Part shown: positions 2,016 through 58,335 of the stretch, in pieces
Position numbering within the stretch: position 1 is the first letter of the stretch
Layout: every line of letters begins with the position of its first letter
The notes under the pieces: generated by a model
The model's database searches: none
The model's input: only the letters and a program-made list of their open reading frames with translations
Told to the model about the DNA's origin: nothing
From: an uncultured Acidobacteriota bacterium
GTDB lineage: Bacteria; Acidobacteriota; Thermoanaerobaculia; Gp7-AA8
NCBI GenBank assembly: GCA_963793695.1
Contig: CAWCBB010000028.1
Location: 657-64,656 of the forward strand
Reading direction: 5' to 3'
Length of the DNA stretch: 64,000 nucleotides
Program-made: the position numbers and the translations under genes

Positions 2016-3406
2016 CGTTTCCGTTTCTCCTTCGAGCGCCGGGCCGGCGCCGGTGGGGTGCGGGCGTCTCGCCCGCCTTTCGACTTCTCCACCACGAGCG
2101 GCGGGCGGGACGCCCGCGCCACACCGGGCTCCGCGCGGAAGCGGATCCGCCCGCCGACGATCGTGGCCGCGACGCGGCCGCGATAGCTGTTTCCGATGAA
2201 CGGAGAGTTCGACGAGCGGGACACGAACGAGCTCCCGACCTCGGTCTTCCCGGCCGGGTCGAGGATCGTGACGTCGCCGATCGCCCCCTCCCGCAGCGTC
2301 CCTCCCGGGAGCCGGAAGATCCGTGCCGGAGAGGTCGACATCAGATCGATCAGCTTCATCAGGTCGATCTTCTTCGTCTTCGCCACGAGCAGGTCGTAGC
2401 AGACGGCGAACGCCGTCTCGAGGCCGATGACGCCGAAGGGCGCCAGGTCGAACTCGACGTTCTTCTCGTCGGGGTGATGCGGAGCATGGTCCGTCGCGAT
2501 GACGTCGACCGTCCCATCGGCGACCGCGTCGACGAGAGCCCGCCGGTGCTCTTCCGAACGGAGCGGCGGGTTCATCTTGAAGTTCGTGGAGAACGACCGG
2601 ATCTCTTCGTCCGTCAGGGCGAGGTGGTGCGGGGTGGCCTCGCACGTCACGCGGAGCCCGTTCTTCTTCGCCCGGCGCACCGCGTCGAGCGCCCCGCGCG
2701 TCGAGATGTGACCGACGTGCACGTGCCCCCCGGTCAGCTCCGCGAGGATCATGTCGCGCGTCGTGAGGACGTCCTCCGAGGCGGCCGGGATCCCGCGCAT
2801 GCCGAGGAGGGTCGAGATCATGCCCTCGCTCATGACGCCGCCGTCGCTCAGATCGAGGTCCTGCTCGTGGACGACGATCGGCGCCGAGAGCATCGTCGCG
2901 TACTCGAGCGCCCGCCGCATCAGGAGCGCGTTCTTCACCGGCCTGCCGTCGTCGCTGAACGCGACGCACCCTCCCAGCCTCAGGTCGGCCATCTCGGCGA
3001 GCGCCTCTCCCGCGAGCCCGCGGCTGACCGCCCCGATCGGATAGACGCGGCACGCGCCGTTGCGCGCCGCTTCCGCCACGATCATCTCCGTCACGGCGCG
3101 CTCGTCGTTCGGCGGCACCGTGTTCGCCATCGAGCAGACCGCCGTGTAGCCGCCCGCGACCGCCGCGCGCGTCCCCGTCGCGATCGTCTCCTTGTGCTCC
3201 TGCCCCGGCTCGCGAAGGTGCGTGTGCAGATCGATCAGCCCCGGCGCGACGACCAGCCCCGCGGCGTCGAAGATCTCCACCCCTTTCGGAGCCCGTACGC
3301 CGGCGCCGACCCGGGAGATCGATCCGTCTTCGATGAGCACGTCGAGCTTCGCGTCGACGCCCCGGCCCGGGTCGACGACCCGGCCGTTCTGAATGAGCAG
3401 GTTCAT
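2012..3406 (-). CDS. pyrC: Dihydroorotase
   Basis: 464-aa ORF with GLIDLHTHLREPG, HVGHIST and ATDHAPH metal-binding motifs of the amidohydrolase/DHOase family. The last ~40 codons run through a REP doublet (2055-2123). Confidence 0.9.
   Translation of the reverse strand: MNLLIQNGRVVDPGRGVDAKLDVLIEDGSISRVGAGVRAPKGVEIFDAAGLVVAPGLIDLHTHLREPGQEHKETIATGTRAAVAGGYTAVCSMANTVPPNDERAVTEMIVAEAARNGACRVYPIGAVSRGLAGEALAEMADLRLGGCVAFSDDGRPVKNALLMRRALEYATMLSAPIVVHEQDLDLSDGGVMSEGMISTLLGMRGIPAASEDVLTTRDMILAELTGGHVHVGHISTRGALDAVRRAKKNGLRVTCEATPHHLALTDEEIRSFSTNFKMNPPLRSEEHRRALVDAVADGTVDVIATDHAPHHPDEKNVEFDLAPFGVIGLETAFAVCYDLLVAKTKKIDLMKLIDLMSTSPARIFRLPGGTLREGAIGDVTILDPAGKTEVGSSFVSRSSNSPFIGNSYRGRVAATIVGGRIRFRAEPGVARASRPPLVVEKSKGGRDARTPPAPARRSKEKRKR
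2055..2123. repeat. REP-A doublet (REPIN-like) in the 3' end of pyrC
   Basis: GGGGTGCGGGCGTCTCGCCCGCC, a 22-nt spacer, then GGCGGGCGGGACGCCCGCGCCAC. The 69 nt are read in frame as GVARASRPPLVVEKSKGGRDARTPP. Confidence 0.85.
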
Positions 3407-10139: not shown

Positions 10140-11087
10140 ATGAAACTGCCACGACTCGTCAGTCTGCTGCTCGTCGCCGCGCTCCTCGCGGGATGCACGT
10201 ACTCGCGAAGGATTCAGCGCCGCAGCGATCTCATGGGCTATCTCTATCCCGGCGCCGATGCTGCCCCGGCGACCAACCCATCCGGCGTCACCCTCCAGCT
10301 TCCGCTCAAGCTCGGCATCGCGTTCGTTCCGGGAGTCGCGACGGAGACGCGGTGCGGGCGTTGCCCCGACCGCCGTCCTGTTCCGGCGGCCAGCGAGAAA
10401 AAGCTCCTCGACATCGTGAAGAGCGCGTTTCAGGGGCGCGACTGGGTCAGCCAGATCGTCATGATCCCGTCGGTGTATCTGCGGCCGGGCGGCGGGTTCG
10501 AGAACCTCCGGCAGGCCGCGCGGATGCACGGGGTCGACGTGGTGGCCCTCGTCTCCGTCGACCAGCTCCAGTCGAGCCATCCCGAGAAGATCTCGTTCCT
10601 CTACCTCAGCGTCGTCGGCGCGTACCTGCTCCCGCTCGACCATCACGACACGCAGACCCTGATCGATGCCGCGGTCTTTCACGTGCCGAGCGAGACGTTC
10701 CTGCTTCGCGCGCCGGGTCTCAGCACGGTGAAAGGGCGCGCCGCGGCGGTCGACGTCGACCGCGACCTCGAGGCGCGCTCGGGCACGGGGCTGAAGCTCG
10801 CGATGGAGGACCTGAGCAAGAACCTCGACGTGGAGGTCGAGCAGTTCAAGTCGCAGGTCGTCAGCGGCGAGCGGAAGGACATCGACATCCGGACCGTGCT
10901 TCTCGGGCTGGTCGCCGCGAAGGCGGTTCTCGAAGCGTCGTCGCTCTCGCTCTTCCCGCATGACGGCTACTTCGTCGTCCCGCTCGCGCACCAGGCGGGG
11001 GCGTTGATGGGGCTCGGGGGCGCGGCCGTCTCGGCCGCCGTTGGCGCCGCGTCTCGCGGCGCCCGGCACGTTCTCGCGACGGATTGA
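10140..11087 (+). CDS. Lipoprotein of unknown function
   Basis: Signal peptide plus lipobox MKLPRLVSLLLVAALLAGC, with GGAGG 6 nt upstream. The C-terminal ~25 codons are encoded by a half REP-B copy (11016-11066), so the native C-terminus is uncertain. Confidence 0.6.
   Translation: MKLPRLVSLLLVAALLAGCTYSRRIQRRSDLMGYLYPGADAAPATNPSGVTLQLPLKLGIAFVPGVATETRCGRCPDRRPVPAASEKKLLDIVKSAFQGRDWVSQIVMIPSVYLRPGGGFENLRQAARMHGVDVVALVSVDQLQSSHPEKISFLYLSVVGAYLLPLDHHDTQTLIDAAVFHVPSETFLLRAPGLSTVKGRAAAVDVDRDLEARSGTGLKLAMEDLSKNLDVEVEQFKSQVVSGERKDIDIRTVLLGLVAAKAVLEASSLSLFPHDGYFVVPLAHQAGALMGLGGAAVSAAVGAASRGARHVLATD
11016..11066. repeat. Half REP-B copy (reverse orientation) in the lipoprotein gene tail
   Basis: GGGGGCGCGGCCGTCTCGGCCGCCGTTGGCGCCGCGTCTCGCGGCGCC is the reverse complement of the second half of REP-B. 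Confidence 0.8.
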
Positions 11088-11120
11088 GCGGCGGGCGGGG
11101 CGCCTGCACCACACGACCCT

Positions 11121-11150
11121 CCGGGCGGCCGCAGGCCGCCCCTACAGGAT
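11121..11150 (-). repeat. GTAG-type REP
   Basis: On the minus strand: GTAGGGGCGGCC TGC GGCCGCCC, immediately after the stop of gene 11142..12956, between convergent genes. Confidence 0.8.
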
Positions 11151-19617: not shown

Positions 19618-19646
19618 CCCCTTGTGTAGGGGCGGCCTGCGGCCGC
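19618..19646 (+). repeat. GTAG-type REP
   Basis: CCCTTGTGTAGGGGCGGCCTGCGGCCGC, the same sequence as the 11121 copy. Confidence 0.8.
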
Positions 19647-19755
19647 ATCGATGGCCGCAGTTACCCCGTCGTCAACGGCACGATCCGCTCGCTGATACGG
19701 ATTCCCGCCCCGAGAGCGTCTAGGCGCCGTGCCGGATAACCTCCCGGGGTGCCCC

Positions 19756-19786: not shown

Positions 19787-21046
19787 TCAGCGGGCCGCAA
19801 TCTCCCGGAACAACGCCTCGTAGGCGTCGACGACGCCCTCCCACGCGTAGTTCGCCCGTGCCCGTGCCCGTGCCCGTGCCCGGATCTCCGTGTCGTCCGA
19901 AGCGAGCGCGTCCGCGAGAACACGCGGGAACGAAGCCTCCCCCTCGAATCGGAAGTACCGGACCGACTCTCCCCCGACCTCCCGGTTCTCCGGCGTATCG
20001 AGCGCGAGCACGGCGCCGTTCGATCCCATCGCTTCGATCAGCGCCGGATGCGTCCCGCCGACCTCGGTCGCCTGGATGTAGATGCGCGCGCTCCGCTGCA
20101 GCGTCCGGTAATCGGCTCCGTAAATTGCGCCGGGGAGGATGACGCGCCCGCAGGGACTGCCTGCGGCGGTCCGTTTCCCGGCTGCGACTTCCTCGAGCCG
20201 CCTGATCAGCTCACTCGAATACGGCGCGCTCCCCACCATGACGAGCGGCAGATCGGTCGCCACGCGACGGAACGCCTCCGCGACCTCGAGCGGATGATTC
20301 TCCGGTTCGAAGCGGCTGACGTAGAGGACGTACCTCTCGGCCTCGAGCCCCAGCCGGTCGAGCACATCGCTATCCGGCTCCTCGGGGAAGTCCGATCCGT
20401 ACGCGATCGTCTCGGCTTCCACGGCGAACGCGTCGCGGTAGTACCGCGCGATCGTCGACGCGTCGGCGACGACGCGCGTCGAGAAGTGCGCCGCGAGCGC
20501 CTCCCCCGTCAGATAGACGACCTTCCCGAGGGCGTTCCACTTCTTCCTCTTCCGTTCGATGCCGTCGACGTTGGTCGCGACGGGAAACCGCGCGGCGCGG
20601 AGGATCGGGAGCACGAATGCGTTCGCCGCGTTGCACAAAAGGATCGCGTCGAACGTGTGCGCCGCCCGGTGTGGTGCGGGCGTCTCGCCCGCCCCTGGTT
20701 GGGCGGCTTCGTTCGAAGGGAGGCGGGCGAGGACGCCCGCACCACACGAGCCCTCGATCGCGCCGTTTTCGCGAATTGCACCCACGAAGATCGCGTGCAG
20801 CGCCGAGAGAAACGCATGCGAGACCGTCTCGAGGTACTTCTGCTCGATCGCGGGAAGGTGGACGAGCTCGATCCCTTCCCACGAAGCGGGTCGCTCGGGA
20901 TAGAGATACGAGCGGCAGTAGACCGTGACGCGGTGGCCGCGCGCGACGAGCCTGGTCCCGAGCTCCGCCGCGAACGTCTCGAATCCGCCGTAGCGCGGCG
21001 GGACCCCGCGCGTGCCGAGGATGGCGATCGAGAGAGGCGTCGGCAT
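19787..21046 (-). CDS. Glycosyltransferase family 4
   Basis: MPTPLSIAILGTRGVPPRYGGFETF N-terminus and GT4 C-terminal motifs (YIQATEVGGTHPALIEAMG). It carries three repeat insertions that keep the frame: REP doublet 20671-20745, REP 20150-20182, and (CCCGTG)4 at 19855-19878. Confidence 0.8.
   Translation of the reverse strand: MPTPLSIAILGTRGVPPRYGGFETFAAELGTRLVARGHRVTVYCRSYLYPERPASWEGIELVHLPAIEQKYLETVSHAFLSALHAIFVGAIRENGAIEGSCGAGVLARLPSNEAAQPGAGETPAPHRAAHTFDAILLCNAANAFVLPILRAARFPVATNVDGIERKRKKWNALGKVVYLTGEALAAHFSTRVVADASTIARYYRDAFAVEAETIAYGSDFPEEPDSDVLDRLGLEAERYVLYVSRFEPENHPLEVAEAFRRVATDLPLVMVGSAPYSSELIRRLEEVAAGKRTAAGSPCGRVILPGAIYGADYRTLQRSARIYIQATEVGGTHPALIEAMGSNGAVLALDTPENREVGGESVRYFRFEGEASFPRVLADALASDDTEIRARARARARANYAWEGVVDAYEALFREIAAR
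19855..19878. repeat. (CCCGTG)4 hexamer run inside the GT4 coding sequence
   Basis: It reads as ..IRARARARARA.. in frame. It is the same unit as the GGGCRC arm family, in reverse complement. Confidence 0.7.
20150..20182 (+). repeat. REP (GCAG variant) inside the GT4 gene
   Basis: GCAGGGACTGCC TGC GGCGGTCCGTTTCCCGGC. It is 33 nt, in frame (AGKRTAAGSPC on the coding strand). Confidence 0.8.
20671..20745. repeat. REP-A doublet inside the GT4 gene
   Basis: GTGGTGCGGGCGTCTCGCCCGCCC, a 27-nt spacer, then GGCGGGCGAGGACGCCCGCACCAC. It is 75 nt, or 25 codons, in frame. Confidence 0.9.
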
Positions 21047-22946: not shown

Positions 22947-23094
22947 TGCAGATTGCTGATCGCAGATTGCAGATTGAAAGTCAAAAACCGGGCGCGGGCG
23001 CGTTCACGGGCGCGCCCCCCTCGCCCCGTGAGCGAAGCGAACGGGGAGAGGGGCCGGGGGTGAGGGGCAATCTGCAATCTGCAATCTGCAATCA
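22947..23094. repeat. Tandem-repeat-armed palindrome, TGCAGAT family, with nested modules
   Basis: Left arm TGCAGAT TGCTGAT CGCAGAT TGCAGAT at 22947-22974. Right arm GCAATCT x3 plus GCAATCA at 23067-23094. Inside are a single GGGCRC arm (GAAAGTCAAAAACCGGGCGCGGGCGCGTTCACGGGCGCG, 22973-23013) and a CCCCGT..ACGGGGAGAGGGGCCGGGGGTGAGGGG box (23015-23067). Confidence 0.9.
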
Positions 23095-25079: not shown

Positions 25080-25100
25080 TGTTGATCGCCGTTTGTCGTT

Positions 25101-25127
25101 GAATTGCAGATTGCAGATTGCAGATTA
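25101..25127. repeat. One-armed TGCAGAT array
   Basis: TGCAGAT x3 at 25105-25125, between the stop at 25125-25127 and the start at 25079. I see no inverted partner. Confidence 0.7.
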
Positions 25128-27187
25128 CCGATCCCGTTCGATGCGATCGAACGTGATCGCGCCGCGAGTCACGCGAATCGCGGGCCGTTGGTGCTGACGT
25201 TCAGTGGGAAGTTTGACGAAGCCGTCGCCCGTCGGCGGTACTTCGTGGATCCGGCCGTCGATCTCGAAAGACCCTCCATTCTCCGCGCGCACGTGGATCG
25301 TCGCGGGCCCCGGCTGCATGCGGAAGCGCATCGATTCGCCTTCGCCGAGCCGCCACCCTCCCGTGAAGCGGAAGCGCGCGACGGTCCAGATCTCCGGGTC
25401 GAGCAGGCCCTGGCGGTGATCGACGTGCACGTCTTCGAATTGAACCACGGAACCGGGGCGCAGCCCCGCCGCGAGGAAGAGCGTGAGCGCGAGAGCTGCG
25501 ACGATCGCGGCGGCGCGGCCTGTGGTGCGGGCGTCCGCCCGCCCAGGAGGGCGGCATCCCCCACCCGAGGCGGGCGAGACGCCCGCACCACACCGAACGC
25601 CACGATCGCGATGAGCAGCAGGATCGCCGCGGCCCACGCCGCGCCGTTCGGCCGGATGAAGCTCGGCAGCAGCCGCGAGAAATCGCTTCCGAAACGGATC
25701 GACAGCCATTCGCCGAGCACCGACTCGCCGCTCGCGATGTGGAAGAGGCGCCAGGGGAACGCGACGCCGTGGACGGCGAGGAGCGCGGTCCAGACCGCGA
25801 CGGGCGCGAGCCATGCGCGCGTCCGCTCGAGCAGCGCGCCCGCGGAGACCGCGACCAGCGGCGCGAACACGACCAGATAGCGCAGCGGCGGCGACCAGCC
25901 GCCATGCCACTCTTCGCGCGGCAGGAGGAGGATCAGATACGGGACAGCGGCGATCGAAGCTGCACGGATCGCGAAGTGACTCGTTCTCCGTTCTCCGTTC
26001 TCCGTTCTCCGCGGCAGGGGCTCGTCTTGCGCCGACGGAACGGCGTTTGCGCCGGAGAACGGAGAACGGAGAACGGAGAACGCCTTTGTGAGAGCAGCAA
26101 CGAGTGCCGCGAACCAGACAGGCGCTTGCAGCAGCATCCCCGCCTGCCCGTCGAGGAGCAGCCCGAACATGCCGCGCGCGTATTTCCAGAGCGACGCCGG
26201 CGCGAGCTCACTCCACCGATGCACCTGGAGAGGGTTGCCGACCAGGAGCCAGCCGCCGAGGAGCGGAAGGGCGACGACCGCCGCGAGCGCGAGCGCGAGT
26301 TTCCGCGCGCCTCGGTCGGAGATCACGACGACGAGCGCGAACACGGCCGCGATCGCCATGAAGCGGAGTTGCAGGAGCGAGAGAGCGACGAGCCACGCCG
26401 CCAGCCGGCCGTACTTCCGCTTCCCCGCGGCCCGCATCGCTTCGCTCAGGCAGAGGGCTCCCGGAACCTCCGGCCAGATGCGCACCGCGTAGAAAAGGAA
26501 GGGAGGGGCGAACGCGAGGAGCGGCCAGAGGCGAAGCGCCGCCTTGCGGGAAACGCCGTGCTCCTCGGTGAGCGCGAAAATCGATCCGACGGCGGCCGCG
26601 CCGAGGAGCGCGATCGTCGCCATGGCGCCCCATAGGCCGCCGAGGGCGACCCCCGGGACGAGCAGGAGCGGCAGGAACGGCTCGTGCCGCGCGTAGATCT
26701 CCCCCGCCGGCCCGACGGGATCGAACGGCTGCGGCTGGAGATCCAACCGCTGCGTCGCGGACCGCTCGAGGTGCGCGTACTGGTTCGCGAGATCGAGATC
26801 GCGGTCGTGAAGGATCGACTCCGCGATCAGCACGTAGTACGGCTCGTCGCCGTCGATCGGCCAGGCGAGCGTCTCGGTTCCCACGATCAGGAAGATCGCG
26901 GCGGCGAAGACCGCGGCCGCGCGCGGCGACCACCGCACTTCGCCTGCGGGAACGAGCGCGCACCAGAGAAGGAAGTGCGCGAGCTTCGCCGCGACGACGA
27001 TCGCGAGGAGAAGCGAGGGGGCTAGATGGACCCCGAGCGCGCCGGCGGAAGCGAGGGAGCCGCCGAGGGCGACCCACGTCGCCACGTCGGAGATCACGAA
27101 GCGGCGGCGATGGAGAGGGAGAAACCAGTGCGGCGCGGCGCTGATCAGCGCCGCGAAAAGGATGAGGAGGATCTGCTCGCGCGTCAT
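25125..27187 (-). CDS. Large polytopic GT-C-like (ArnT/PMT_2-like) membrane glycosyltransferase, frame switched at a REP doublet
   Basis: More than 12 hydrophobic segments and a DGDEPYYVLIAESIL first-loop motif. ORF 25169..27187 is protein-like down to the REP doublet at 25522-25591. Downstream of it, the protein-like frame is that of ORF 25125..25910 (..VVQFEDVHVDHRQGLLDPEIW..). The gene also contains the 99-nt GGAGAAC palindrome at 25983-26081 in frame. Confidence 0.6.
25522..25591. repeat. REP-A doublet inside the GT-C gene, 70 nt, coincident with the frame switch
   Basis: The first hairpin reads GCGGGCGTCCGCCCGC, one nt shorter than GCGGGCGTCTCGCCCGC in the other copies. Confidence 0.85.
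25983..26081. repeat. Tandem-repeat-armed palindrome, GGAGAAC family, inside a CDS
   Basis: GTTCTCC x4 (25983-26010), a 43-nt core, then GGAGAAC x4 (26054-26081). The total is 99 nt, or 33 codons, read through in frame as SVLRSPFSGANAVPSAQDEPLPRRTENGERR. Confidence 0.9.
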
Positions 27188-28923
27188 CGCGGCGCGACCT
27201 CCATCCTCTCGATCTGGAGGCGCGCTCCGGGCGGGAGCGCGCGGTCGGCCGCGACGATCATCCTGCCGATCGGCCGTTCGAGGCGGACCCGCAGCCGCCC
27301 CTCGCCGCGCAGCGACGCCTCGCGACCTTCACCGCCGATCGTCCATCCCGGACTCCGCGGCAGAGGATTCCGCGTGCGGAAGAGATCGCCGCTTCGAAAG
27401 GCGCCCCAGTCGGCGATCTCGCCGGCGCGGATCGGCCGCGCCCAGGCCTCCCCCGCCGCGTCGACGACGTCGAGGCGCCCGAGGAGCGTTCCCTCGTCGA
27501 GGCCGGAGATGTTGGCGCCCGAGATGATCACGTCGATCGCCCGGCTCTCGAGCGGCGGCTCGAGGACGAACGACTCCCCGGCGGCGATCGAAGTGAGGAC
27601 CGGCTCGACGTGTCGCGGCTCCTCGGGGAGGACGATGATGAAAACGACGAATGAGGCCGCAGCGATCGCGGACGCTGCGATCGTGGGGTGCGGGCGTCCC
27701 GCCCGCCCCCGGGTGGGGGAGGAGGCCCACGCCACCGCGATCGCCGCGACGATCGCGAACGGCACCCAGAGCTCGCGATCCGCAAAGAGCGGAAACGCGG
27801 CCGCCGCGGCGCCGCTCCACGCGGAGAGGGCGATCGCGCAGAAGAGGAGCGCGCCGGTGACGGCCGCGGCCCGTGACGCACGCGGCGACTCGCGCCGCGA
27901 CAAGACGAGGAGCGCCATCAGCGCGAGCAGCAGCGCCGGATGCGGGCGCGCGAACAGCGAGAGCGCGAAGAGGAGCGCCGCCGCGACACGCTGCCACCAT
28001 TCCGCGGGCGCGAACAAAGCCCCCGGCGCGAACCCGGCGCCGGCGATGGCCCCGGCCGCGCGGCTCGCCGTCAGCGCCGGGATGGCGATCATCGCCGCAG
28101 GGACCGGCTGCGCCGGTCCGTTTCTCCTTCGAAGAAACGTCGCCCCCGCCCGTGCCGCGAGGACGACCGCGACGCCTGCCGCCATCCACCTGCCGACGAC
28201 GAGCGCGAGAACCAGCGACGCGACCCCGAATGCAATCGCAGGGGCGCTCCGCGGGCGCCCGGAATCGCGGACCGCGAAGAACGCCAGCGCGATCGCCACC
28301 GGGATCAGCGCAGCGTCCCACGGCGCCAGCGGCGTCGCGAGGGCGATCGCGACGATGAGGAAGAAAGCCGCGAGCGACACCCCGGGTGGGGTGCGGGCGT
28401 CCTCGCCCGCCCCCGGGCGGGGGGATTCCGCGACCGCCCAGCCAGAGGCGGGCGAGGACGCCCGCACCCCACCGGTCCCTACGACCAGCGCCACGGTCCC
28501 CGCTGCCAGCAGAAGGAGCGGCGGAACCACGCTCCCGTCGAACGGAAACGCCCGCGTCGCCACGACGAGCAACGCGAGCGCGATCGCGCGCCCCTGCGGC
28601 ACCGTCCCCTCACGCGCGACGTCGACGACCGCGATCGCGAATGCCGTCGCAAGGAGAACGCCGTAGACGAGGTGCCGCGCGGGATCCGCCGGGATCGCGA
28701 TCGCCGCGCCGAGGATCAGCGGGATCGTCAGCGCGATCCATTGCGCCGCCCCCTCCGAGACCGCGATCGCGCCCGCGACCGACGCGAGAAACACCCAGTA
28801 CGGCAGAGCGGCGTCGGTGCCGCTCGTGAACCCGGCCAGCCGGGCCACCGCGAACGCGAGGGCGCAGCCGGCCAGAGCGAGGAGAAAGGCGCCGGGTCCA
28901 CGATTCGCCGTCACGTCCGGCAC
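27184..28923 (-). CDS. Polytopic membrane protein with C-terminal soluble domain (polymerase/ligase-like role possible)
   Basis: 579-aa ORF with a GTG start and ~12 hydrophobic segments. The stop overlaps the next start (ATGA). It contains three in-frame REP insertions (27685-27746, 28097-28127, 28385-28473). Confidence 0.5.
   Translation of the reverse strand: MPDVTANRGPGAFLLALAGCALAFAVARLAGFTSGTDAALPYWVFLASVAGAIAVSEGAAQWIALTIPLILGAAIAIPADPARHLVYGVLLATAFAIAVVDVAREGTVPQGRAIALALLVVATRAFPFDGSVVPPLLLLAAGTVALVVGTGGVRASSPASGWAVAESPRPGAGEDARTPPGVSLAAFFLIVAIALATPLAPWDAALIPVAIALAFFAVRDSGRPRSAPAIAFGVASLVLALVVGRWMAAGVAVVLAARAGATFLRRRNGPAQPVPAAMIAIPALTASRAAGAIAGAGFAPGALFAPAEWWQRVAAALLFALSLFARPHPALLLALMALLVLSRRESPRASRAAAVTGALLFCAIALSAWSGAAAAAFPLFADRELWVPFAIVAAIAVAWASSPTRGRAGRPHPTIAASAIAAASFVVFIIVLPEEPRHVEPVLTSIAAGESFVLEPPLESRAIDVIISGANISGLDEGTLLGRLDVVDAAGEAWARPIRAGEIADWGAFRSGDLFRTRNPLPRSPGWTIGGEGREASLRGEGRLRVRLERPIGRMIVAADRALPPGARLQIERMEVAPR
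27685..27746. repeat. REP-A copy with adjacent degenerate partner, inside a CDS
   Basis: GGGGTGCGGGCGTCCCGCCCGCCCCC followed by GGGTGGGGGAGGAGGCCCACGCCACC. Confidence 0.7.
28097..28127 (+). repeat. REP (GCAG variant) inside a CDS
   Basis: GCAGGGACCGGC TGC GCCGGTCCGTTTCTCC. Confidence 0.8.
28385..28473. repeat. REP-A doublet inside a CDS
   Basis: GGTGGGGTGCGGGCGTCCTCGCCCGCCCCC ... GAGGCGGGCGAGGACGCCCGCACCCCACC, read through as GVRASSPASGWAVAESPRPGAGEDARTPP. Confidence 0.85.
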
Positions 28924-28941
28924 TCGAGAGAGTCAGAAGAC

Positions 28942-29052
28942 AAATGCAAAATGCAAAATGCAAAATGCAAAGTCCAAGAAAGGGTCGAGGATCCTGGCGT
29001 CGAAACCCTTTTTGCATTTGTCATTTTGCATTCTGCATTTTGCATTTCTTCT
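28942..29052. repeat. Tandem-repeat-armed palindrome, AT-rich AAATGCA family
   Basis: AAATGCA x4 at 28942-28969. The inverted TTTGCAT TTGTCAT TTTGCAT TCTGCAT TTTGCAT lies at 29011-29045. The core holds the hairpin AAAGGGT..ACCCTTT. Confidence 0.9.
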
Positions 29053-29067
29053 TTCTCACCACCTTAT

Positions 29068-31844: not shown

Positions 31845-32588
31845 GTGCGCGTTCTCCTGACGCTGCAATACCTCGGCACGCGCTACGCCGGGTGGCAGTC
31901 GCAGGAGAACGCGCTCGCGGTCCAGCAGGTCGTCGAGGCCGCTCTCGGCACGCTCTGCCGCGAGCCGGTCCGCGTCGTCGGCGCCAGCCGCACCGACGCG
32001 GGCGTTCACGCCGAGGATCAGAAGGCGCACTTCGACCTGCCGATCCCCATCGGTCTCCGGGGCCTCCTCCTCGGGCTCAACGACCTGCTGCCGAGAGACG
32101 TCCGCGCGATCGCGGCGCGCGAGGTCGCGCCCGACTTCCACGCGCAGCATCGCGCGATCGCGAAGACCTACCGCTATCAGATCTGGAACGGGGAGATCGC
32201 CGACGTCTTCCGCGCCGCGACCTGGGCTCACGTCCGCGCGCCCCTCGAGCTGGGGCTGATGATCGAAGCCTCGCGCGCCCTGGTCGGGCCGCACGACTTC
32301 CGCGCATTCACCGTCGTGGAGCCGGAGGTCGCCTCGACCGAGCGGGCGATCGACGGCCTCGAGCTGAGCGGGGAGGGCCCGGCCATCACCATGCGCGTGA
32401 CGGCCGCGGGCTTCCTCCGCTACATGGTCAGACGCATCGCCGGCCAGCTCATCGAGATCGGCCGGGGCAAGCTGCCGGTCGACGCGGCCGCCGCCGCCCT
32501 CGAGCCGACCTTCGCCGAAGCGCGCTGGACCGCGCCGCCGGAGGGGCTGGTCCTCGAGCGGGTCCGTTATGAGGACGAGGACGAATGA
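31845..32588 (+). CDS. truA: tRNA pseudouridine(38-40) synthase
   Basis: GASRTDAGVHA catalytic motif. 247 aa with a GTG start. Confidence 0.9.
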   Translation: MRVLLTLQYLGTRYAGWQSQENALAVQQVVEAALGTLCREPVRVVGASRTDAGVHAEDQKAHFDLPIPIGLRGLLLGLNDLLPRDVRAIAAREVAPDFHAQHRAIAKTYRYQIWNGEIADVFRAATWAHVRAPLELGLMIEASRALVGPHDFRAFTVVEPEVASTERAIDGLELSGEGPAITMRVTAAGFLRYMVRRIAGQLIEIGRGKLPVDAAAAALEPTFAEARWTAPPEGLVLERVRYEDEDE

Positions 32589-32733
32589 GTCCAGGAGTCC
32601 AGGAATCTAAGAGTCTTGGCGTCCGAAATTCAGCGTCCGCGATGCGGATCGGACCGTTTCGGGGCGTCCCGATTGCTGCATTCAGGTGCTGACCGCCGAC
32701 TCCCAGACGCCAAGACTCGTGGACTCCCGACTG
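32587..32733. repeat. Tandem-repeat-armed palindrome, octamer GAGTCCAG family
   Basis: 5 octamers at 32587-32626, starting inside the truA stop codon. 5 inverted octamers lie at 32694-32733. Confidence 0.85.
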
Positions 32734-34470: not shown

Positions 34471-34568
34471 GGTCTGGGGGTCTAGGGGTCCCGCGCCCGG
34501 GCCCGCGCCCGGACCCGCGCCCGGCCTTTGACTTCTGGACTCGATACCGCCCTCGCGCCTAGACTCGG
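34471..34568. repeat. Composite: octamer GGTCTGGG arms enclosing a single GGGCRC-family arm
   Basis: GGTCTGGG GGTCTAGG GGTCCCGC (34471-34494), then CCGCGC CCGGGC x3 plus TTTGACTT (34491-34534), then the inverted CTGGACTC..CTAGACTC (34535-34566). It ends about 6 nt before the dxr ATG. Confidence 0.8.
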
Positions 34569-34573
34569 CGCGC

Positions 34574-35753
34574 ATGCGCCGCATCTCGATCCTCGGCTCC
34601 ACCGGCTCCATCGGCCGCAGCACTCTCGCGGTCGTCGACGCCTTCCCCGACCGGCTGGAGGTCATCGCCCTCTCCGCGGGGCGCAACGTCGAGGTCCTCG
34701 CCGAACAGGTCCGCCGCTACCGCCCGCAGCTCGTCTCCCTCGGCCACGAGGCCGACGAGCCGCGCCTTCGCGAGCTTCTCGGACCCGAGGACCCTCCCGA
34801 GATCGTCTGCGGCAGCGAGGGGGCGCGCGCGGTCGCGACGCACCCCGGCTCGGACACCGTGATCGCGGCGATCGTCGGCGCGGCCGGGATTCCTCCCGTC
34901 TACGACGCCCTCCTCCGCGGCAAGCGCGTCGGCATCGCGAACAAGGAAGTCCTCGTCGCCGCGGGCGACCTGATGACCGAGGCCGCGCGGAAGCATGGAG
35001 GCGAGATCCTTCCGGTCGACTCCGAGCACAACGCCGTGCACCAGGCGATCCGCTGCGGCGGCCATGACGAGATCCAGCGCATCATCCTCACCGCCTCCGG
35101 CGGGCCGTTCCTGCGGCGCGACATCGCGACCTTCGGCGAGATCACCGTCGACGCCGCCCTCGCGCATCCGACCTGGAAGATGGGGAGCAAGATCTCGATC
35201 GACTCCGCGACGATGATGAACAAGGGGCTCGAGGTCATCGAGGCGCATCACCTCTTCGGGCTCGAGGCCGACCGGATCGACATCATCATCCACCCGCAGT
35301 CGATCGTTCACTCGATGGTGGAGTTCGTCGACGGATCGATCATCGCGCAGATGTCGACCGACCGACATGAAGTTCCCGATCCAGTACGCCCTCCTCTATC
35401 CCGAGCGCACCCCCGCTCCCTTCGCCCGCCTCGACCTCGGCAAGATCCGGCAGCTCGAGTTCCTCCAGGTCGAACCGGAACGTTTCCCGGCGGTCGCGCT
35501 GGCGTACGAAGCCCTCTCCGCCGGCGGCTCCGCGCCGGCCGTGCTCAACGCCGCGAACGAGATCGCCGTCAGCCGGTTCCTCCACGGCGAGATTCCGTTT
35601 CTGAGCATCGTGGAGATCGTCCGCACGGTCTTCGACAAGCACCTCCCCTCGCGCGCCCCCCTCGGCTCCATCGACGACGCCCTCGAGTGGGACCGCTGGG
35701 CGCGCAATGAAGCGCGCGGAGTGCATGTTGCTCAAGTAGTCGGGGAGAAGTAG
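34574..35753 (+). CDS. dxr: 1-deoxy-D-xylulose-5-phosphate reductoisomerase, one frame disruption
   Basis: ILGSTGSIG, DSEHNA, SGGPF, HPTWKMG and NKGLEVIEA lie in ORF 34574..35710. The C-terminal domain (MKFPIQYALLYPER...) lies in ORF 35367..35753. The switch is near 35356-35366. Confidence 0.9.
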
Positions 35754-37224: not shown

Positions 37225-38191
37225 GGGAGCGCGGGCGTCCTCGCCCGCCGTTGCGGCGGCGTCCCGCCGCCGATCCGCAATGGCGCCGCGGGACGCGGCG
37301 CCAACGGCGGCCGAGACGGCCGCGCCCCTGAAGGCTTTCCGAGGTACACTTTCCCTCCCACCTTCGCTCTCTGACGCTGCCTGCTTCGGCGACGTCAAAT
37401 GAGAACCACACGAACGATCCTCTATTCAACAACTGCGCATCTGAGGATCCGCGGCCGGTCCCGCCTTCCACACTTCGAGCTGGATCACGCGATCTATTTC
37501 GTCACCTGGCGACTCGCCGATTCGCTGCCGCAGCATGTCGCAGAGGATCTGCAGAAGGAATGGAAGTGGCTGGGTGAGCAGCTTCAGACGCGCGAAATGA
37601 CGCCCGCCGCACGGAGCGCTCTGTTGAGTCACTATTCGAAGACATACGAGGGGGCTCTCGACGAGGGGTTCGGCTCCTGCATTCTTTCGAATCGCGACGC
37701 GGCGCACATCGTCCAGGGAGCACTCCTCTTTTTCGACCAGCAGCGGTACGACCTGTTCGCCTGGGCGGTAATGCCCAACCACGTTCACGTCGTGTTCTTC
37801 CTTGAGAGAGGAGACCAACTGGATCGCGTACTCCATTCGTGGAAGTCGTTCACGGCACATCGAATCAACCAACGTCTCGACCGGCGCGGAAAACTGTGGC
37901 AGGACGAGTACTTCGACCGGATTGTCCGCGACGAGCGCGAGCTCGAGCAGACGATTCAATACGTGATCAACAACCCCGCCGCGGCGGGCATGCAGGACTG
38001 GCCTTTCGTCGGAGCAAAGTTCCGGGGAATTGAATAACGGAGCAGCTGCAGCTGGTGTCGGGCGTCCTCGCCCGCGACAGGGGCGCGGGCGTCCTCGCCC
38101 GCCGTTGCGGCGGCGTCCCGCCGCCGCCAGATCCGGATACAAGGCGCCGCGGGGACGCGGCGCCAACGGCGGCCGGGACGGCCGCGCCCCT
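37225..38191 (+). mobile_element. RAYT gene with flanking compound REP-B palindromes
   Basis: Left flank 37225-37329 and right flank 38080-38191 are near-identical ~105-nt units: GGG(A/G)GCGCGGGCGTCCTCGCCCGCCGTTGCGGCGGCGTCCCGCCGCCG..GGCGCCGCGGGACGCGGCGCCAACGGCGGCCG(A/G)GACGGCCGCGCCCCT. An extra half hairpin lies at 38055-38079. Confidence 0.7.
37399..38037 (+). CDS. REP-associated tyrosine transposase (RAYT, IS200/IS605-like Y1 HUH enzyme)
   Basis: 212 aa with the HUH motif PNHVHVVF, the catalytic-Tyr motif IQYVINNPAAAG, and the N-terminal RLPHFELDHAIYFVTWRL. It is flanked on both sides by compound REPs. Confidence 0.8.
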   Translation: MRTTRTILYSTTAHLRIRGRSRLPHFELDHAIYFVTWRLADSLPQHVAEDLQKEWKWLGEQLQTREMTPAARSALLSHYSKTYEGALDEGFGSCILSNRDAAHIVQGALLFFDQQRYDLFAWAVMPNHVHVVFFLERGDQLDRVLHSWKSFTAHRINQRLDRRGKLWQDEYFDRIVRDERELEQTIQYVINNPAAAGMQDWPFVGAKFRGIE

Positions 38192-38227
38192 GTGGGACCC
38201 ATCACGATCGCGAACCAACGCGCCGTG

Positions 38228-39478: not shown

Positions 39479-39507
39479 TCAGCCTCCCGTTTTGCTCCGT
39501 GGCGCGA

Positions 39508-39702
39508 ATTGCAGATTGCAGATCTCGGATTGCAGATTGGCGTCGGCCCCATCACTCCGCCATTTCAAGACTACGCGTCATGCGCCTCCCCCACCCAGAT
39601 CCCTCGCTACGCTCGGGATGACATGAGCGCGAGTAGCTGCCTCCGCGCCCGTGCACGCGCCCGCGCCCGCGCCCGGTTTTTCCAATCTGCAATCTGCAAT
39701 CA
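39508..39702. repeat. Tandem-repeat-armed palindrome, TGCAGAT family, with nested modules
   Basis: Left arm at 39508-39538. Right arm AATCTGC x2 plus AATCACG at 39684-39704, overlapping the ABC-F stop. Inside are the inverted box CCAGATCCCTCGCTACGCTCGGGATGACATG (39595-39625) and a single GGGCRC arm (39644-39683). Confidence 0.9.
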
Positions 39703-41623: not shown

Positions 41624-41761
41624 GATTGCGGATTGCAGATTGCAGATTGCAGATTACGGAGCCGGACGGAGCGTTTCTCTCTCCGAACGACCCTCGGCAC
41701 TGCAAACCACGAGCGCTAGCGTACAATTGCACCGATTCTCAATCTGCAATCTGCAATCGAC
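41624..41761. repeat. Tandem-repeat-armed palindrome, TGCAGAT family
   Basis: 5 units at 41624-41658. The inverted units GATTCTC AATCTGC AATCTGC AATCGAC lie at 41734-41761. The core begins TACGGAGCCGGAC, as in the 17981 copy. It lies between the divergent ABC-F and pdxJ starts. Confidence 0.9.
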
Positions 41762-42478: not shown

Positions 42479-42500
42479 CGCCGGCGGCTTCGCCGCCGGC

Positions 42501-42630
42501 AAATGCAAAATGCAAAATGACAAATCCAAAGGGGGAGCTCGGTTCTCTCCCTGAATCAGCGTCCCTGCCCCACGCACGGTTCTCTTTTTGGATTTTTCAT
42601 TTTGCATTTTGCATTTTGCATTTTTCTTCT
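42501..42630. repeat. Tandem-repeat-armed palindrome, AT-rich AAATGCA family
   Basis: AAATGCA AAATGCA AAATGAC AAATCCA at 42501-42528. The inverted ..CATTTTG x3.. lies at 42584-42630. It is preceded by a perfect 9-bp GC hairpin GCCGGCGGC TTC GCCGCCGGC (42480-42500). It lies between convergent genes. Confidence 0.9.
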
Positions 42631-42631
42631 G

Positions 42632-43555
42632 TCACCGCGTTCGCAGCCACTCCATCGTCACCCGCAGCCCCTCGGACAGCGGAACAGGCAACGGCAACCC
42701 CGCCGCCTTCCGCAGCTTCGATCCATCCAGCACCGACCGCATCTGCTCCCCCTTCTTCGCGGGTGCATGCGATGAGACGCCCTTCATCCCGGCTGCTTTC
42801 TGGATCCCTTCCCACAGCTGGACGACGGACGTCTCGATCCCCGTCCCGACGTTGAACACGCCCGACAGCTCCTGCTCGGAGACGGCCATATTCGCGCGGA
42901 CGACGTCGCCGACGAAGACGTAGTCGCGCGTCTGTTCGCCGCTCCCGTTGATGACGACCGGTTCGCCGGCGAGCAGCTTCCCGCCGAAGATCGCGATCAC
43001 GCCCGCCTCGCCGTCGCGCCGCTGGCGCGGGCCGTAGACGTTGCCGTAGCGGAGCGACGCCGTCTGGAGCCCGTAAACCTGCCGGTAATAGCCGAGGTAG
43101 GAGTCGAAGGCGAGCTTGGCGCAGCCGTAGGGGGAGATCGGGTTGGCGGGGTGCGACTCGTCCTGGGGCGTCGTGAGCGGCTCGCCGTACGCGGCGCCGC
43201 CGGAGGAGGCGAAAATGAACGTCTTCACGCCCGACTCGAGCGCCGCCTGCGCGAGGCGGAGCGCGCCCACGACGTTCGTCTCCGCGTCGAGCGCCGGATC
43301 CGCGACCGAGACGCGGACGTCGATCTGCGCCGCGTGGTGGTTGACGACGTCGAACTTCCCGCTCCTCACGCGATGGAGAACGCCCGGGTCGTTCAGATCG
43401 CCCTCGATGAGATCCGCCTTCGGATTGACGTTCTCGCGAACGCCGGTCGAGAGATTGTCGAGAACGGCAACCTCCCATCCTCCATCGATGTAGGCATCGG
43501 CGATGTGCGACGCGATGAACCCGGCGCCGCCGGTGACGAGGACGCGTTTTTCCAA
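42632..43555 (-). CDS. NAD-dependent epimerase/dehydratase (UDP-glucose 4-epimerase-like)
   Basis: VLVTGGAGFIASH and YGCAK (YxxxK). 307 aa with a TTG start and GAGGGA upstream. Confidence 0.85.
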   Translation of the reverse strand: MEKRVLVTGGAGFIASHIADAYIDGGWEVAVLDNLSTGVRENVNPKADLIEGDLNDPGVLHRVRSGKFDVVNHHAAQIDVRVSVADPALDAETNVVGALRLAQAALESGVKTFIFASSGGAAYGEPLTTPQDESHPANPISPYGCAKLAFDSYLGYYRQVYGLQTASLRYGNVYGPRQRRDGEAGVIAIFGGKLLAGEPVVINGSGEQTRDYVFVGDVVRANMAVSEQELSGVFNVGTGIETSVVQLWEGIQKAAGMKGVSSHAPAKKGEQMRSVLDGSKLRKAAGLPLPVPLSEGLRVTMEWLRTR

Positions 43556-43575
43556 GGTATCCCTCGATCTTGAAT

Positions 43576-43770
43576 TGCAGATTGCAGATCGCAGATCGCA
43601 GATTGCAGATTAGCTCTCTACCGCAGGCTGCGGATTATAGGATGTCATCCCGAGCGTAGCGAGGGATCTGGGCGGAGGACGCGCGTAACGCGGCTTCGTT
43701 CTCAGGCGGGATCCTCAACCCCACGCCCGATCAGCAATCCCCAATCCCCGATCCGCAATCCCCAATCCGG
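43576..43770. repeat. Tandem-repeat-armed palindrome, TGCAGAT-related, diverged right arm
   Basis: TGCAGAT/CGCAGAT x5 at 43576-43610. The box GATGTCATCCCGAGCGTAGCGAGGGATCTGG lies at 43641-43671. The right arm GATCAGC AATCCCC AATCCCC GATCCGC AATCCCC AATCCGG lies at 43729-43770. Confidence 0.8.
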
Positions 43771-44371: not shown

Positions 44372-44794
44372 TACGCGCGATCCGAGCTCGAGTTCGGGTC
44401 GGGCGGCGGGAGGAGACCCTCGTAGAGATTGGCGTACCGAAGAATCGTGAGCCCCACACCCCGCGAAGTGCACACCGCAGAAACCGCCCGCTCCACCGCC
44501 AGCTTCGACCGCCCGTTCGCCGTATTCGGCCGCAGCGCATGCGTCTCCGAAATCGGCAGCATCTCCGCGTCCCCATACACGAAGCCGCTGGAAGCCAGCA
44601 CGACGTGCGAAGCCCCGCCGTCGATCGCCGCCTCGACGAGTCGCGCGGATCCGAGAACGTTGACGCGCCGGTCCTCCTCCTCGCCGGCATTCAAGGCCGC
44701 CAGGTCATACGCGAGATGGTGCACGACGTCGGCGCCCGCCTCGCGGACGGCACCCTCGAGCACCGGATCCCCGAGCGATCCTTCGATGGCGGCG

Positions 44795-44827
44795 TTCGGG
44801 ACCGCCTGCGGCGGTCCGTTTCCCGCC
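44795..44827 (+). repeat. REP inside the epimerase paralog, at its frame switch
   Basis: TTCGGGACCGCC TGC GGCGGTCCGTTTCCCGCC. Confidence 0.8.
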
Positions 44828-45553: not shown

Positions 45554-45585
45554 CCCCGTAGGGCCGCACAGCGTGCGGCCGTTTC
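45554..45585 (+). repeat. GTAG-type REP
   Basis: CCCCGTAGGGCCGCAC AGC GTGCGGCCGTTTC. Confidence 0.8.
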
Positions 45586-45884
45586 TGATGCAGTCGAGCG
45601 GAGCTCTCGTGTCGCTTGACGAAATCCATTCGTGGGCGCGCGGGCGCGGCTAAACGCCTGCTTCGCAAATCTCGCGTCAGTATGAGCCTGCCCGAAAAAG
45701 TGCAGCAGGTCGTCGAGTTGCAGAAGATTGCAGTGACCACGATTCGGCGACGCAGGCCCTTACGCGACATTGAGCGCGTTTGGCCGCTCCGTCACCCATG
45801 ATCCGTCCAGGCAGGCGGTGCGATCTTCAACCGACTCTGGCGCTTGACCGCGGATGATCGCGGCGAACACCTCACGCCGCCGCG

Positions 45885-45952: not shown

Positions 45953-45985
45953 CGCCGTAGCGGCGCACAGCGTGCGCCGTTCCCC
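45953..45985 (+). repeat. GTAG-type REP
   Basis: CGCCGTAGCGGCGCAC AGC GTGCGCCGTTCCCC. Confidence 0.8.
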
Positions 45986-46870: not shown

Positions 46871-46894
46871 CGGCCGCGGGCGCCGTCTCGTCGC

Positions 46895-46926
46895 GTAGGG
46901 ACCGGCTGCGCCGGTCCGTCTTCGCC
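46895..46926 (+). repeat. GTAG-type REP after the nucleotidyltransferase gene
   Basis: GTAGGGACCGGC TGC GCCGGTCCGTCTTCGCC, 25 nt after the TAG stop. Confidence 0.8.
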
Positions 46927-53254: not shown

Positions 53255-53715
53255 TCAGAGCGCCGTAGGGGCGAAATCGTCTAGCCCCGGGCGTCAGCCC
53301 GGGGTCTCGCGCAGACGCGCAATCCCGAGCGCCGTAGGCGCGACATCGTCTCCCCTCGCGATTTCGGGGGAACGATGTCGCCGCTACGCGGCTCGGATCT
53401 TTCCAACTTGCGGCAGACCCCGGGCTTACGCCCCAATGGCCTTAACTTAACGCGACGCAAAGATGTCATCCCGAGCGTAGCGAGGGATCGGCTGGGGCGC
53501 GGGCGTCTCGCCCGCCGTTGCGGCGGCGTCTCGCCGCCGCCACCGGGCGCCGCGGGACGCGGCGCCAACGGCGGCCGGGACGGCCGCGCCCCTTGCGCAC
53601 CGATCCCGGTCATCGGCGGTCGGGCGCAGCCCGCGCCTGCCTACGCTCGGGATGACAAACGTGCGGATCACTTACGCCCGGGGCTACACGATGTCGCGCC
53701 TACGGCGCTCGTGAG
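53255..53715. repeat. Cluster of nested palindromic repeats
   Basis: The outer pair GAGCGCCGTAGGCGCGACATCGT (53326-53348) / ACGATGTCGCGCCTACGGCGCTC (53688-53710) is an exact inverted repeat. Inside are a REPIN (53324-53395), the hairpin CCCCGGGC GTCA GCCCGGGG (53285-53304), and box - REP-B - box (53462-53660). Confidence 0.85.
53494..53593. repeat. REP-B compound palindrome (third copy)
   Basis: Near-identical to the units flanking the RAYT gene. Here it is bracketed by inverted GATGTCATCCCGAGCGTAGCGAGGGATC boxes (53462-53491 and 53640-53660). Confidence 0.9.
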
Positions 53716-57780: not shown

Positions 57781-58076
57781 AGTACTTCCTCGCTCTCCTC
57801 CTTCTCGCGTCCTCACTCGGCGCGGCGGCAGCGGGGTGGTCGCGGTTCCGGTGGCGGAACGTGGGCACGGCGTCCCGCCGTGCAACCCACCGAACGAGAT
57901 ACCCGAATGCCGCACGAAGCCGCCGACCGAGCCCTCCGCCCTCACGATCCACATCCGCGCATCTCGTCCGGCCGGGCTGGGCGGTGAGACGCCGCCCGCC
58001 ACTATGGGCCCGGGCGTTCGGGAACGTGGGCACGGCGTCTCGCCGTGCAACCCAAACGAACGAGCGACCCGGATGA
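57777..58076 (+). other. Signal-peptide remnant ORF running into tandem repeats (possibly a truncated DUF3999-like gene)
   Basis: MKYFLALLLLASSLGAAAAGWSRFRW starts with an ATGA overlap on the DUF2339 stop. Everything after codon ~27 is encoded by the 165-bp repeats. Confidence 0.2.
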
Positions 58077-58335
58077 CGCCCGAAGCGACCGACCGCACGA
58101 TCCGCCCTCACGATCCACATCCGCGGACCTCATTCGGCCGGGCTGGGCGGCGAGACGCCGCCCGCCACTATGGGCCCGGGCGGTCGGGAACGTGGGCACG
58201 GCGTCTCGCCGTGCAACCCAAACGAACAGCGACCCGGATGACGCCCGAAGCGGCCGACGAACGATCCGCCCTCACGATCCACATCCGCGGACCTCACTCG
58301 GCCGGGCTGGGCGGCGAGACGCCCGCACCACACCC
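57856..58335. repeat. Tandem repeat, ~165-bp unit x 2.9
   Basis: Units start at 57856, 58021 and 58187 (GGAACGTGGGCACGGCGTCYCGCCGTGCAACCCA...). Each unit holds the hairpins GCACGGCG TCY CGCCGTGC and GGGCGGYG AGA CGCCGCCC and a diverged GGATGACGCCCGAAGCG box. The last unit ends in a REP-A half (GGCGGCGAGACGCCCGCACCAC). Confidence 0.9.

Follow-up and report, generated by a model that had tools for sequence, protein, structure and literature searches.

A probable REPtron in a Thermoanaerobaculia-like acidobacterium: a RAYT gene bracketed by its likely cognate REPINs

Described systems and the class of the enzyme

RAYT–REPIN systems are the best-known vertically inherited within-genome replicators of bacteria, and detailed work on them has been done almost entirely in Gammaproteobacteria. 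Here we describe a gene for a REP-associated tyrosine transposase (RAYT, or TnpA-REP), together with the repetitive extragenic palindromic (REP) sequences around it, in a stretch of 64,000 nucleotides (hereafter the window) on contig CAWCBB010000028.1 of an uncultured acidobacterium. The gene occupies the whole gap between rseP (Peptidase_M50 and PDZ domains) and the convergent cinA gene, with an ABC-F gene beyond. We consider it highly probable that this locus is a REPtron, in which a single-copy RAYT gene that is not part of an insertion sequence (IS) is bracketed between rseP and cinA by cognate inverted REP doublets (REPINs), and in which three repeat families with TCY loops (families A, B and C) are the likely substrates. 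By analogy with described systems, the enzyme would most likely copy the flanking hairpin repeat around the chromosome.

Y1 proteins fall into three classes, of which class 2, with a Y-x-x-x-N-P motif, holds the RAYTs, Y-x-x-x-Q being the motif of IS200 (PMC6006769). The described enzyme that best matched ours in both sequence and fold was that of the Escherichia coli REPtron, TnpA-REP (RayT/YafM, structure 4ER8), a member of TnpAY1 subclass 2.2 of PMC6006769. The two loci share the same plan, a single gene bordered by inverted pairs of REPs, which also occur scattered through the genome, and the two proteins share the HUH and Y-x-x-x-N-P core. However, the REPs of E. coli are bulged and carry GTAG, whereas in the REPs described here the GC hairpins are short and perfect, the loops are TCY, the foot is G[G/T]GG and each arm contains two hairpins. 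The REPIN–RAYT system of Pseudomonas fluorescens (Bertels and Rainey 2011, PMC3116915) is similar in that an inverted doublet of REPs, which folds into one long hairpin, serves as its mobile unit, its single-copy RAYT is flanked by REPINs, and the REPIN arms are conserved around a variable spacer. It differs in the RAYT subclass (2.5, group 3), in the REP sequence and in lacking the two hairpins per arm seen here.

The open reading frame (ORF) at 37399..38037 carries the HUH motif as P126-N-H128-V-H130-V-V-F and the tyrosine motif as Y188-V-I-N-N-P193, with Y188 as the putative catalytic tyrosine. The first-pass annotation of the window had called the ORF a RAYT on these motifs and its single-gene, non-IS context, and had proposed a search with hidden Markov models (HMMs), the outcome of which agreed with the call. 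Pfam Y1_Tnp matched with an E value of 4.8e-10 and 40.1 bits (cutoff 23), and NCBIfam REP_Tyr_transpos (NF047646), the equivalog model for REP-associated tyrosine transposases, matched with 81.2 bits (curated cutoff 80). The IS200 model NF033573 (transpos_IS200) gave 22.1 bits, below its cutoff of 55. E. coli TnpA-REP (4ER8) was the sole PDB match by sequence (E 1.6e-6); in this alignment H128 and H130 fell on E. coli H59 and H61, and Y188, N192 and P193 on Y115, N119 and P120. Residues W167, Q168, D173, R174 and R177 aligned to E. coli W94, Q95, E100, H101 and R104, which contact the GTAG foot (PMC6006769), such that W94, Q95 and R104 are kept. In an alignment of 26 sequences, all 27 invariant family columns were intact in our protein, including H128, H130 and Y188.

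An AlphaFold model built from 26 homologs (mean pLDDT 85) had 4ER8_A as its top Foldseek match (E 1.7e-7, target-normalised TM 0.65), with the TnpA structures of IS608, ISDra2 and IS200 all ranking below it. In the model, a helical hairpin (two helices, approximately residues 45-88) is inserted between β1 and αA, and an LDxGxGxC motif (residues 87-94; L87-D88-x-G-x-G92-x-C94) that is invariant across the family alignment follows directly. This insertion of about 45 residues and its motif distinguish the protein from E. coli TnpA-REP, as do a fold-aligned identity of only ~16%, the replacement of E100 by D173 and of H101 by R174, and NHVH rather than EHMH at the HUH. The motifs, profile matches and predicted fold confirm the assignment of the ORF product as a putative Y1 HUH enzyme, a RAYT (TnpA-REP) of HUH Y1 class 2.

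Published signatures suggest that the protein may belong to subclass 2.7 (Quentin et al. 2018, PMC6006769). That subclass is marked by [ND]HVH, WQ and YI[LR][NQ]NP (an NNP or NQNP end), with D in place of E100 and in some cases R in place of H101; its members have a median length of 213 residues, number ~1.2 copies per genome and accompany long REPs with a GT[AG]G foot (PMC6006769). Our protein fits approximately, with NHVH, WQ, YVINNP, 212 residues, D173 and R174, and most homologs of its clade have a GTAG, GTAA or GTGG foot beside them. Subclass 2.7 is found mainly in Cyanobacteria (PMC6006769), whereas the clade considered here is spread over Acidobacteriota, Planctomycetota, Verrucomicrobiota and Armatimonadota, and no acidobacterial entries were found in the supplement of PMC6006769. 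Subclass 2.4 (YIxNNP), which fits less well, is the other candidate.

Two described kinds of repeat system were considered and rejected. Like the locus described here, the TIRtrons of Acidobacteria (Di Nocera et al. 2013, PMC3733652) combine tyrosine transposases (TIRYTs) with inverted-repeat flanks that can give rise to moderately abundant families, and the TIR motif begins with GGGG, as do the family-B arms. However, the published motif is GGGGWSAS, whereas the arms read GGGG[C/T]GCG and are built of REP-type hairpins. Most TIRYTs belong to subclass 2.1 and have a C-terminal helix-turn-helix domain (PMC6006769), for which our protein leaves no place because Y188 lies 24 residues from its C terminus. 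The CGTC-tagged REPs of PMC3733652, considered on account of CGTC at the apex of the hairpins, are of a different kind, since their tag is an unpaired end and they have AT pairs at the base of the stem and a CCA tail.

A scan of the locus for sigma-70 promoters and terminators returned no consensus promoter and nothing meaningful. A CCGAGGTACACT motif lies 5′ of the gene (Table 1), and a CCGAGGTAnnnT motif, frequently palindromic (CCGAGGTAnCCTCGG), recurred 45-75 nt 5′ of the RAYT start in the closest homologs (L003, L005, L008, L010, L018, L023, L028, L029 and L079). Homologs from Terriglobia have TAnAAT-like boxes in its place. We regard TACACT (37345-37350) and the CCGAGGTAnnnT motif as a candidate −10 element or operator.

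Flanking REPINs and the repeat families of the window

Each flank of the gene carries one unit of four perfect hairpins with GC stems of 7-10 bp and loops of TCCT, TCC, GGA and AGA or GGA (Table 1). The two units are in direct orientation and share an exact 42-mer (37231-37272 = 38085-38126), for which the chance expectation is 0; further direct repeats of 53 nt (96%) and 41 nt (98%) join the flanks. Reverse complementing the left half of each unit gives the right half, and stem differences between the halves are compensated (GGGCG vs GGCCG, and GCGGCGG vs GGCGCCG). Because its halves are reverse complements, the four-hairpin unit is a REPIN in which two REP arms, each of two hairpins, form an inverted doublet. 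Each family-B arm consists of two hairpins joined by CGTTG, and two inverted arms make a REPIN of 100-115 nt; in the upstream unit a spacer separates the left from the right arm. As single strands, the flank units form long hairpins (z −4.7 to −8.2).

The same four-hairpin unit had been recognized on both flanks in the first-pass annotation, and the exact 42-mer and the 96-98% blocks bear this out, with the unit refined to a REPIN and its right-hand copy now placed at 38078-38192. The element beside the RAYT stop codon, then described as an extra half hairpin at 38055-38079, is present, but it is a complete hairpin with a foot of its own. A third copy and a half copy were found where they had been placed, the latter being a single arm that reads as the right arm of full family-B units in reverse complement. 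Among the family-B copies the arms are almost invariant, the differences lying in the loops and the central spacer. The core pattern GCGGGCGTC(N0-2)CGCCCGC occurs 12 times in the window, as compared with 0.01 expected. An exact 22-mer of the family-B arm gave two unrelated matches among 185,579 species genomes, and a degenerate arm pattern gave 13 single matches in a metagenome scan, all attributable to chance, in GC-rich coding DNA and with no RAYT near. An Rfam Acido-Lenti-1 small RNA motif lies ~190 nt from the third REPIN and is consistent with an acidobacterial origin.

These results bear on the possibility that REPIN, gene and REPIN form an ordinary IS200/IS605-type insertion sequence (TnpA subclass 1.1) that moves as one piece. 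Such an element would have a Y1 HUH fold and structured ends on both sides, as seen here, and the unit does fill the entire rseP–cinA intergenic region. Even so, we give this explanation almost no credence. The tyrosine motif is Y-x-x-x-N-P rather than Y-x-x-x-Q, the IS200 model scored far below its cutoff, and the supposed ends are found alone, with no gene, at many other sites. There is no tnpB at the locus, where the neighbours are rseP and cinA; a search of all frames of the window with the family profile revealed no second RAYT; and in a collection of 5.8 billion proteins the only near-identical entry was the protein itself (cluster size 1), the next match being ~50% identical. Because it lacks tnpB, is present once in the window and has no near-identical database entry, the locus does not look like an active insertion sequence, and the single-gene, non-IS context noted earlier stands.

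The REPtron reading raises the question of which repeats the enzyme would serve. The hairpins of the flank units share a signature: G[G/T]GG and one further base form the 5′ foot, C-G closes the stem, and the loop is TCY. The combination of foot and TCY loop is common to families A, B and C. The window holds 3.5 family-B, 4.5 family-A and 3 family-C units. Perfect hairpins with TCY-type loops (stem of at least 7 bp, loop of 3-4 nt) number 27, whereas the mean over thirty shuffles that approximately preserved dinucleotide content was 1.2 and the highest count 5. Family-A arms, GGTG[G/T]GGTGCGGGCG-TCY-CGCCCGCC, consist of single hairpins in inverted pairs, and their hairpin GCGGGCG-TCCT-CGCCCGC has the same sequence as hairpin 1 of family B. 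The family-C unit contains the inverted TCY-loop hairpins GTGGG-CACGGCG-TCY-CGCCGTG and GTGGC-GGGCGGCG-TCT-CGCCGCC. The feet are GTGG or GTGT-GG in families A and C, and GGGG or GGAG in family B. We reason from these sequences that the cognate REP would have a 5′ foot of G[G/T]GG plus one base, a GC stem of 7-10 bp closed by C-G and a TCY (TCC, TCT or TCCT) loop. Families A, B and C are assigned to the RAYT because of their shared foot and TCY-loop signature, and they are likely its substrates, so that one enzyme would serve all three. The GTAG-foot REPs with TGC or AGC loops, the tandem-heptamer palindromes and the (GCCCGY)n runs lack the signature, and we reason that the enzyme does not serve the GTAG/TGC-loop REPs or the heptamer-armed palindromes. 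Of the candidates named in the first-pass annotation, those whose hairpins have a G[G/T]GG foot and a TCY loop are retained, and the GTAG-type REPs and tandem-armed palindromes are not.

It could instead be that this RAYT serves family B only and that other paralogs mobilise families A and C, with one RAYT for each REP family. Each tnpA-REP has been associated with its own REP family (PMC6006769), arm architecture differs among families A, B and C, and two RAYT paralogs are present in some homolog genomes, JAJXWV (L003 and L010) and JADLAK (L031 and L047). We think this division of labour unlikely. The identity of the family-A hairpin with family-B hairpin 1 argues against it, as do the family-A-like GGTG foot of the lone REP at 38054-38076, the family-A type of the last arm of the family-C array and the single RAYT of the window. 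Moreover, more than one REP subfamily was reported in nearly half of REPtrons (PMC6006769).

Further repeats in the window stand outside families A, B and C. The GTAG-foot REPs with TGC or AGC loops (e.g. GTAGGGACCGGC-TGC-GCCGGTCCGTTTC) may be an orphan family or the product of a different RAYT encoded at another place in the genome; in L091, a close relative (lineage SRR30681586, ~97% nucleotide identity), one copy has kept its position. The intergenic palindromes with tandem-heptamer arms pair (GATTGCA)n with (TGCAATC)n or (CAAAATG)n with (CATTTTG)n and are unrelated to the repeats that flank the RAYT gene. Hexamer runs, octamer runs and a further short tandem repeat site are listed in Table 1.

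Table 1. Coordinates of the RAYT gene, its associated repeats and other features of the window
Feature	Position	Strand	Remarks
RAYT (TnpA-REP) gene	37399..38037	+	212 aa, ATG start, TAA stop
CCGAGGTACACT motif	37339..37350	+	49 nt 5′ of the RAYT ATG
Upstream REPIN, family B	37225..37329		105 nt; single-stranded DNA fold −54.8 kcal/mol, z −4.7
Upstream REPIN, left arm	37225-37272		hairpins 37231-37248 (loop TCCT), 37254-37272 (loop TCC)
Upstream REPIN, right arm	37281-37329		hairpins 37281-37303 (loop GGA), 37307-37323 (loop AGA)
Lone REP	38054..38076	+	foot GGTGT and hairpin 38059-38074 (CGGGCG-TCCT-CGCCCG); 22 nt past the RAYT stop
Downstream REPIN, family B	38078..38192		115 nt; single-stranded DNA fold z −8.2
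Downstream REPIN, hairpins	38085-38102, 38107-38127, 38143-38164, 38169-38185
Third full family-B REPIN	53492..53590		arms kept; loops TCT/TCT/GGA/GGA; different spacer
Single family-B arm	11013..11066	+	two hairpins, both with TCT loops
Family-A REPIN	2052..2125		same first hairpin and type of foot as family B
Family-A REPIN	20668..20747		in frame within glycosyltransferase gene
Family-A REPIN	25520..25594
Family-A single arm	27683..27717	+
Family-A REPIN	28385..28473		single-stranded DNA fold z −9.3
Family-C array	57850..58330		three tandem 166-nt units
GT4/DUF1972 glycosyltransferase gene	19787-21040	−	contains family-A REPIN
Membrane-protein-like ORF	27184-28923	−	putative gene; no Pfam match
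Acido-Lenti-1 motif	53259-53304	−	39.9 bits (gathering score 37)
GTAG-foot REPs, TGC/AGC loops	11117-11141, 19626-19650, 28095-28125, 44793-44825, 45556-45590, 45955-45985, 46893-46925
Tandem-heptamer palindromes	17982-18120, 22944-23093, 25095-25140, 39507-39700, 41624-41667, 43573-43616; 28927-29065, 42500-42641
(GCCCGY)n hexamer runs	4526-4555, 19854-19883, 34495-34524, 39647-39676, 54747-54776		followed by GGCTTT; five sites
Octamer runs	6436-6604		GGGTGTCT-like
Short tandem repeat site	32586-32623
dxr, first part	34574-35350		DXP_reductoisom and DXP_redisom_C
dxr, second part	35367-35753		DXPR_C

TCY-loop hairpins at homologous loci

The clade to which the enzyme belongs comprises more than 2,300 database proteins in the four phyla named above and has barely been described. 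We fetched 80 homolog loci (38-52% identity; given here with the prefix L) from these phyla and others, and examined hairpin loops at the 53 loci with a gene of normal size, counting hairpins within 400 nt of the homolog gene as near. Loops of TCC, TCT, TCCC or TCCT (or their complements) were present in 130 of 207 perfect hairpins near the gene (63%), as compared with 30 of 334 elsewhere (9%). Similarly, hairpins with a CGTCY(Y)CG apex occurred at 2.28 per kb near the gene, a figure that includes the window, and at 0.16 per kb elsewhere, a 14-fold difference. Significant flank-to-flank repeats were found in about half of the loci. The typical element was GTAGC-GCCGGCG-TCC-CGCCGGC, in many cases with TGTC and another TCY hairpin after it, and GTAG, GTAA or GTGG was the foot at most loci. 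Two-hairpin arms and the layout '>><< gene >><<' recurred (e.g. L010, L013, L024 and L073). The hairpin nearest the gene pointed in either direction about equally often across loci, so that no fixed orientation was seen, as would be expected of inverted doublets. Because both features recur near homolog genes, the TCY loop and the two-hairpin arm are predicted properties of the cognate REPs of the clade, beyond this genome.

The foot varied with the residue at the position of E. coli H101. Of 39 loci whose homolog has H at this position, 34 have GTAN or GTGG feet; of 21 with R, as in R174 of our protein, 17 have GGRG or some other foot. In the parts of PMC6006769 and PMC3733652 available to us we found no mention of the β1–αA insertion, of arms with two hairpins or of a rule for TCY loops, which is weak evidence of novelty.

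Base composition was also compared across the homologs. In 45 of 52 loci the RAYT gene was lower in GC than its surroundings, yet the genes track host GC; the mean deficit was −4.2 points, and −6.2 points in high-GC hosts. Low GC at third codon positions (GC3) was therefore rejected as a sign of recent transfer, the deficit being family-wide.

Many homologs are annotated as fused to a preceding AdoMet decarboxylase (PF02675) or FabA (PF07977) domain (P0006, P0013, P0017, P0020, P0060, P0064 and others), and at several Planctomycetota loci (L039, L059, L071, L077 and L081) the RAYT domain follows REP arrays within ORFs of ~1000 residues. These fusions and long ORFs could be read-through artefacts, conserved synteny or true in-frame insertions.

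Proposed mechanism, mobility of the repeats and significance

A mechanism can be proposed by analogy with E. coli TnpA-REP and IS608 TnpA, from which catalysis, strand specificity and loop reading would carry over. The RAYT would bind a folded REP hairpin on single-stranded DNA, with the W167/Q168/D173/R174/R177 segment reading the foot; as the clade-wide conservation of TCY suggests, the loop would be read as well. Y188, together with a metal held by H128 and H130, would then cleave beside the REP to form a 5′-phosphotyrosine link, and rejoining of the strand at a new site would spread the REPIN with no movement of the RAYT gene itself.

One REPIN-containing block of the window differs in presence between close lineages. 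The GT4/DUF1972 glycosyltransferase gene holds a family-A REPIN in frame, and a block of ~117 nt that contains this REPIN is absent from an ortholog that is 96% identical in protein and in which nearly every aligned flanking base is identical. In a comparison with orthologs from loci L091, L105 and L106, the equivalent loop of more distant orthologs contained a GTAG/TGC-loop REPIN and (GATCAAC)4 in one case and (GGAGAAC)4 in another. Since orthologs carry other repeats in the same loop, this site tolerates insertions; it looks like a repeat-insertion hotspot, and these lineages often acquire repeats. In a relative with ~80% identity in the glycosyltransferase, TCY hairpins are almost absent from 21 kb, a sign that these hairpins expanded in a lineage-specific way. 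Two further family-A copies, at 27683-27717 and 28385-28473, lie inside the long membrane-protein-like ORF and leave its frame unbroken.

This comparison is relevant to the alternative that the RAYT is a relic, or has been domesticated, and no longer transposes REPs, the hairpins being kept as terminators or stabilisers of mRNA and the flanks being historical. RAYT activity is predicted here from sequence and model, the GC3 of the gene is below that of its neighbours, and the scan of the locus gave no consensus promoter. In addition, terminator-like hairpins would be expected between convergent genes, which is where the flanking REPINs are found. On the other hand, every invariant catalytic and family residue is intact, and the arms are near-identical with differing spacers, as expected of recently copied units. 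The REPIN-containing block that is missing from the 96%-identical ortholog, and the near absence of TCY hairpins from the ~80%-identical relative, likewise count against a relic. We consider loss of function decidedly improbable and retain the interpretation of the locus as a REPtron.

Several observations nevertheless weigh against that interpretation. The match to NF047646 exceeded the curated cutoff by only 1.2 bits and spans residues 104-203 only, and the GC3 of the RAYT gene is 72%, as compared with 89-92% in neighbouring genes. The GGGG/GGAG foot of family B is not the canonical GT[AG]G, and the counts for loop conservation and for covariation of foot and residue ignore shared ancestry. 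The block missing from the glycosyltransferase ortholog measures ~117 nt and the REPIN 80 nt, so that the difference is not a clean single insertion. Finally, our REP and RAYT counts cover the 64-kb window, and families A or C could be served by a second RAYT in another part of the genome.

A more comprehensive proposal would join these elements, although taken as a whole we advance it tentatively and rate it as somewhat doubtful. The clade would share a recognition code consisting of a foot, a GC stem closed by C-G, a TCY triloop and often two-hairpin arms. The residue at the H101 position would set the foot, H specifying GT[AG]G and R specifying GG[AG]G, and the β1–αA insertion with its LDxGxGxC motif would aid recognition of the loop or of the second hairpin. 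In this genome, one enzyme would service REPIN families A, B and C, including the in-frame copies within genes.

The host genome is high in GC and Thermoanaerobaculia-like. Comparison of the cinA region gave little information on the history of the insertion site: in the closest relative (71% identity in CinA and 86% in ABC-F) the contig stops 85 nt past cinA, and in more distant relatives neither rseP nor a RAYT gene adjoins cinA. Elsewhere in the window, dxr is divided between two ORFs (Table 1). This split indicates a frameshift near 35340-35370, which would reflect either a pseudogene or an error in the assembly.

The locus is an ordinary example of a known system and leaves the understanding of how RAYT–REPIN systems work unchanged. 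It is, however, a clean and intact example from a Thermoanaerobaculia-like acidobacterium, a member of an understudied clade, to which the present analysis adds a reasoned assignment of cognate repeats, a clade-wide recognition signature and one REPIN block that is absent from a close lineage. It also allows the numerous repeat families of the genome, which is very rich in repeats, to be sorted into those with TCY loops, which are plausibly products of this RAYT, and others that need another explanation. The conservation of the TCY loop and the covariation of the foot with H or R lead to testable predictions on how Y1 enzymes read hairpins and, if confirmed, these loop and foot rules would help to annotate REPs in poorly studied phyla.

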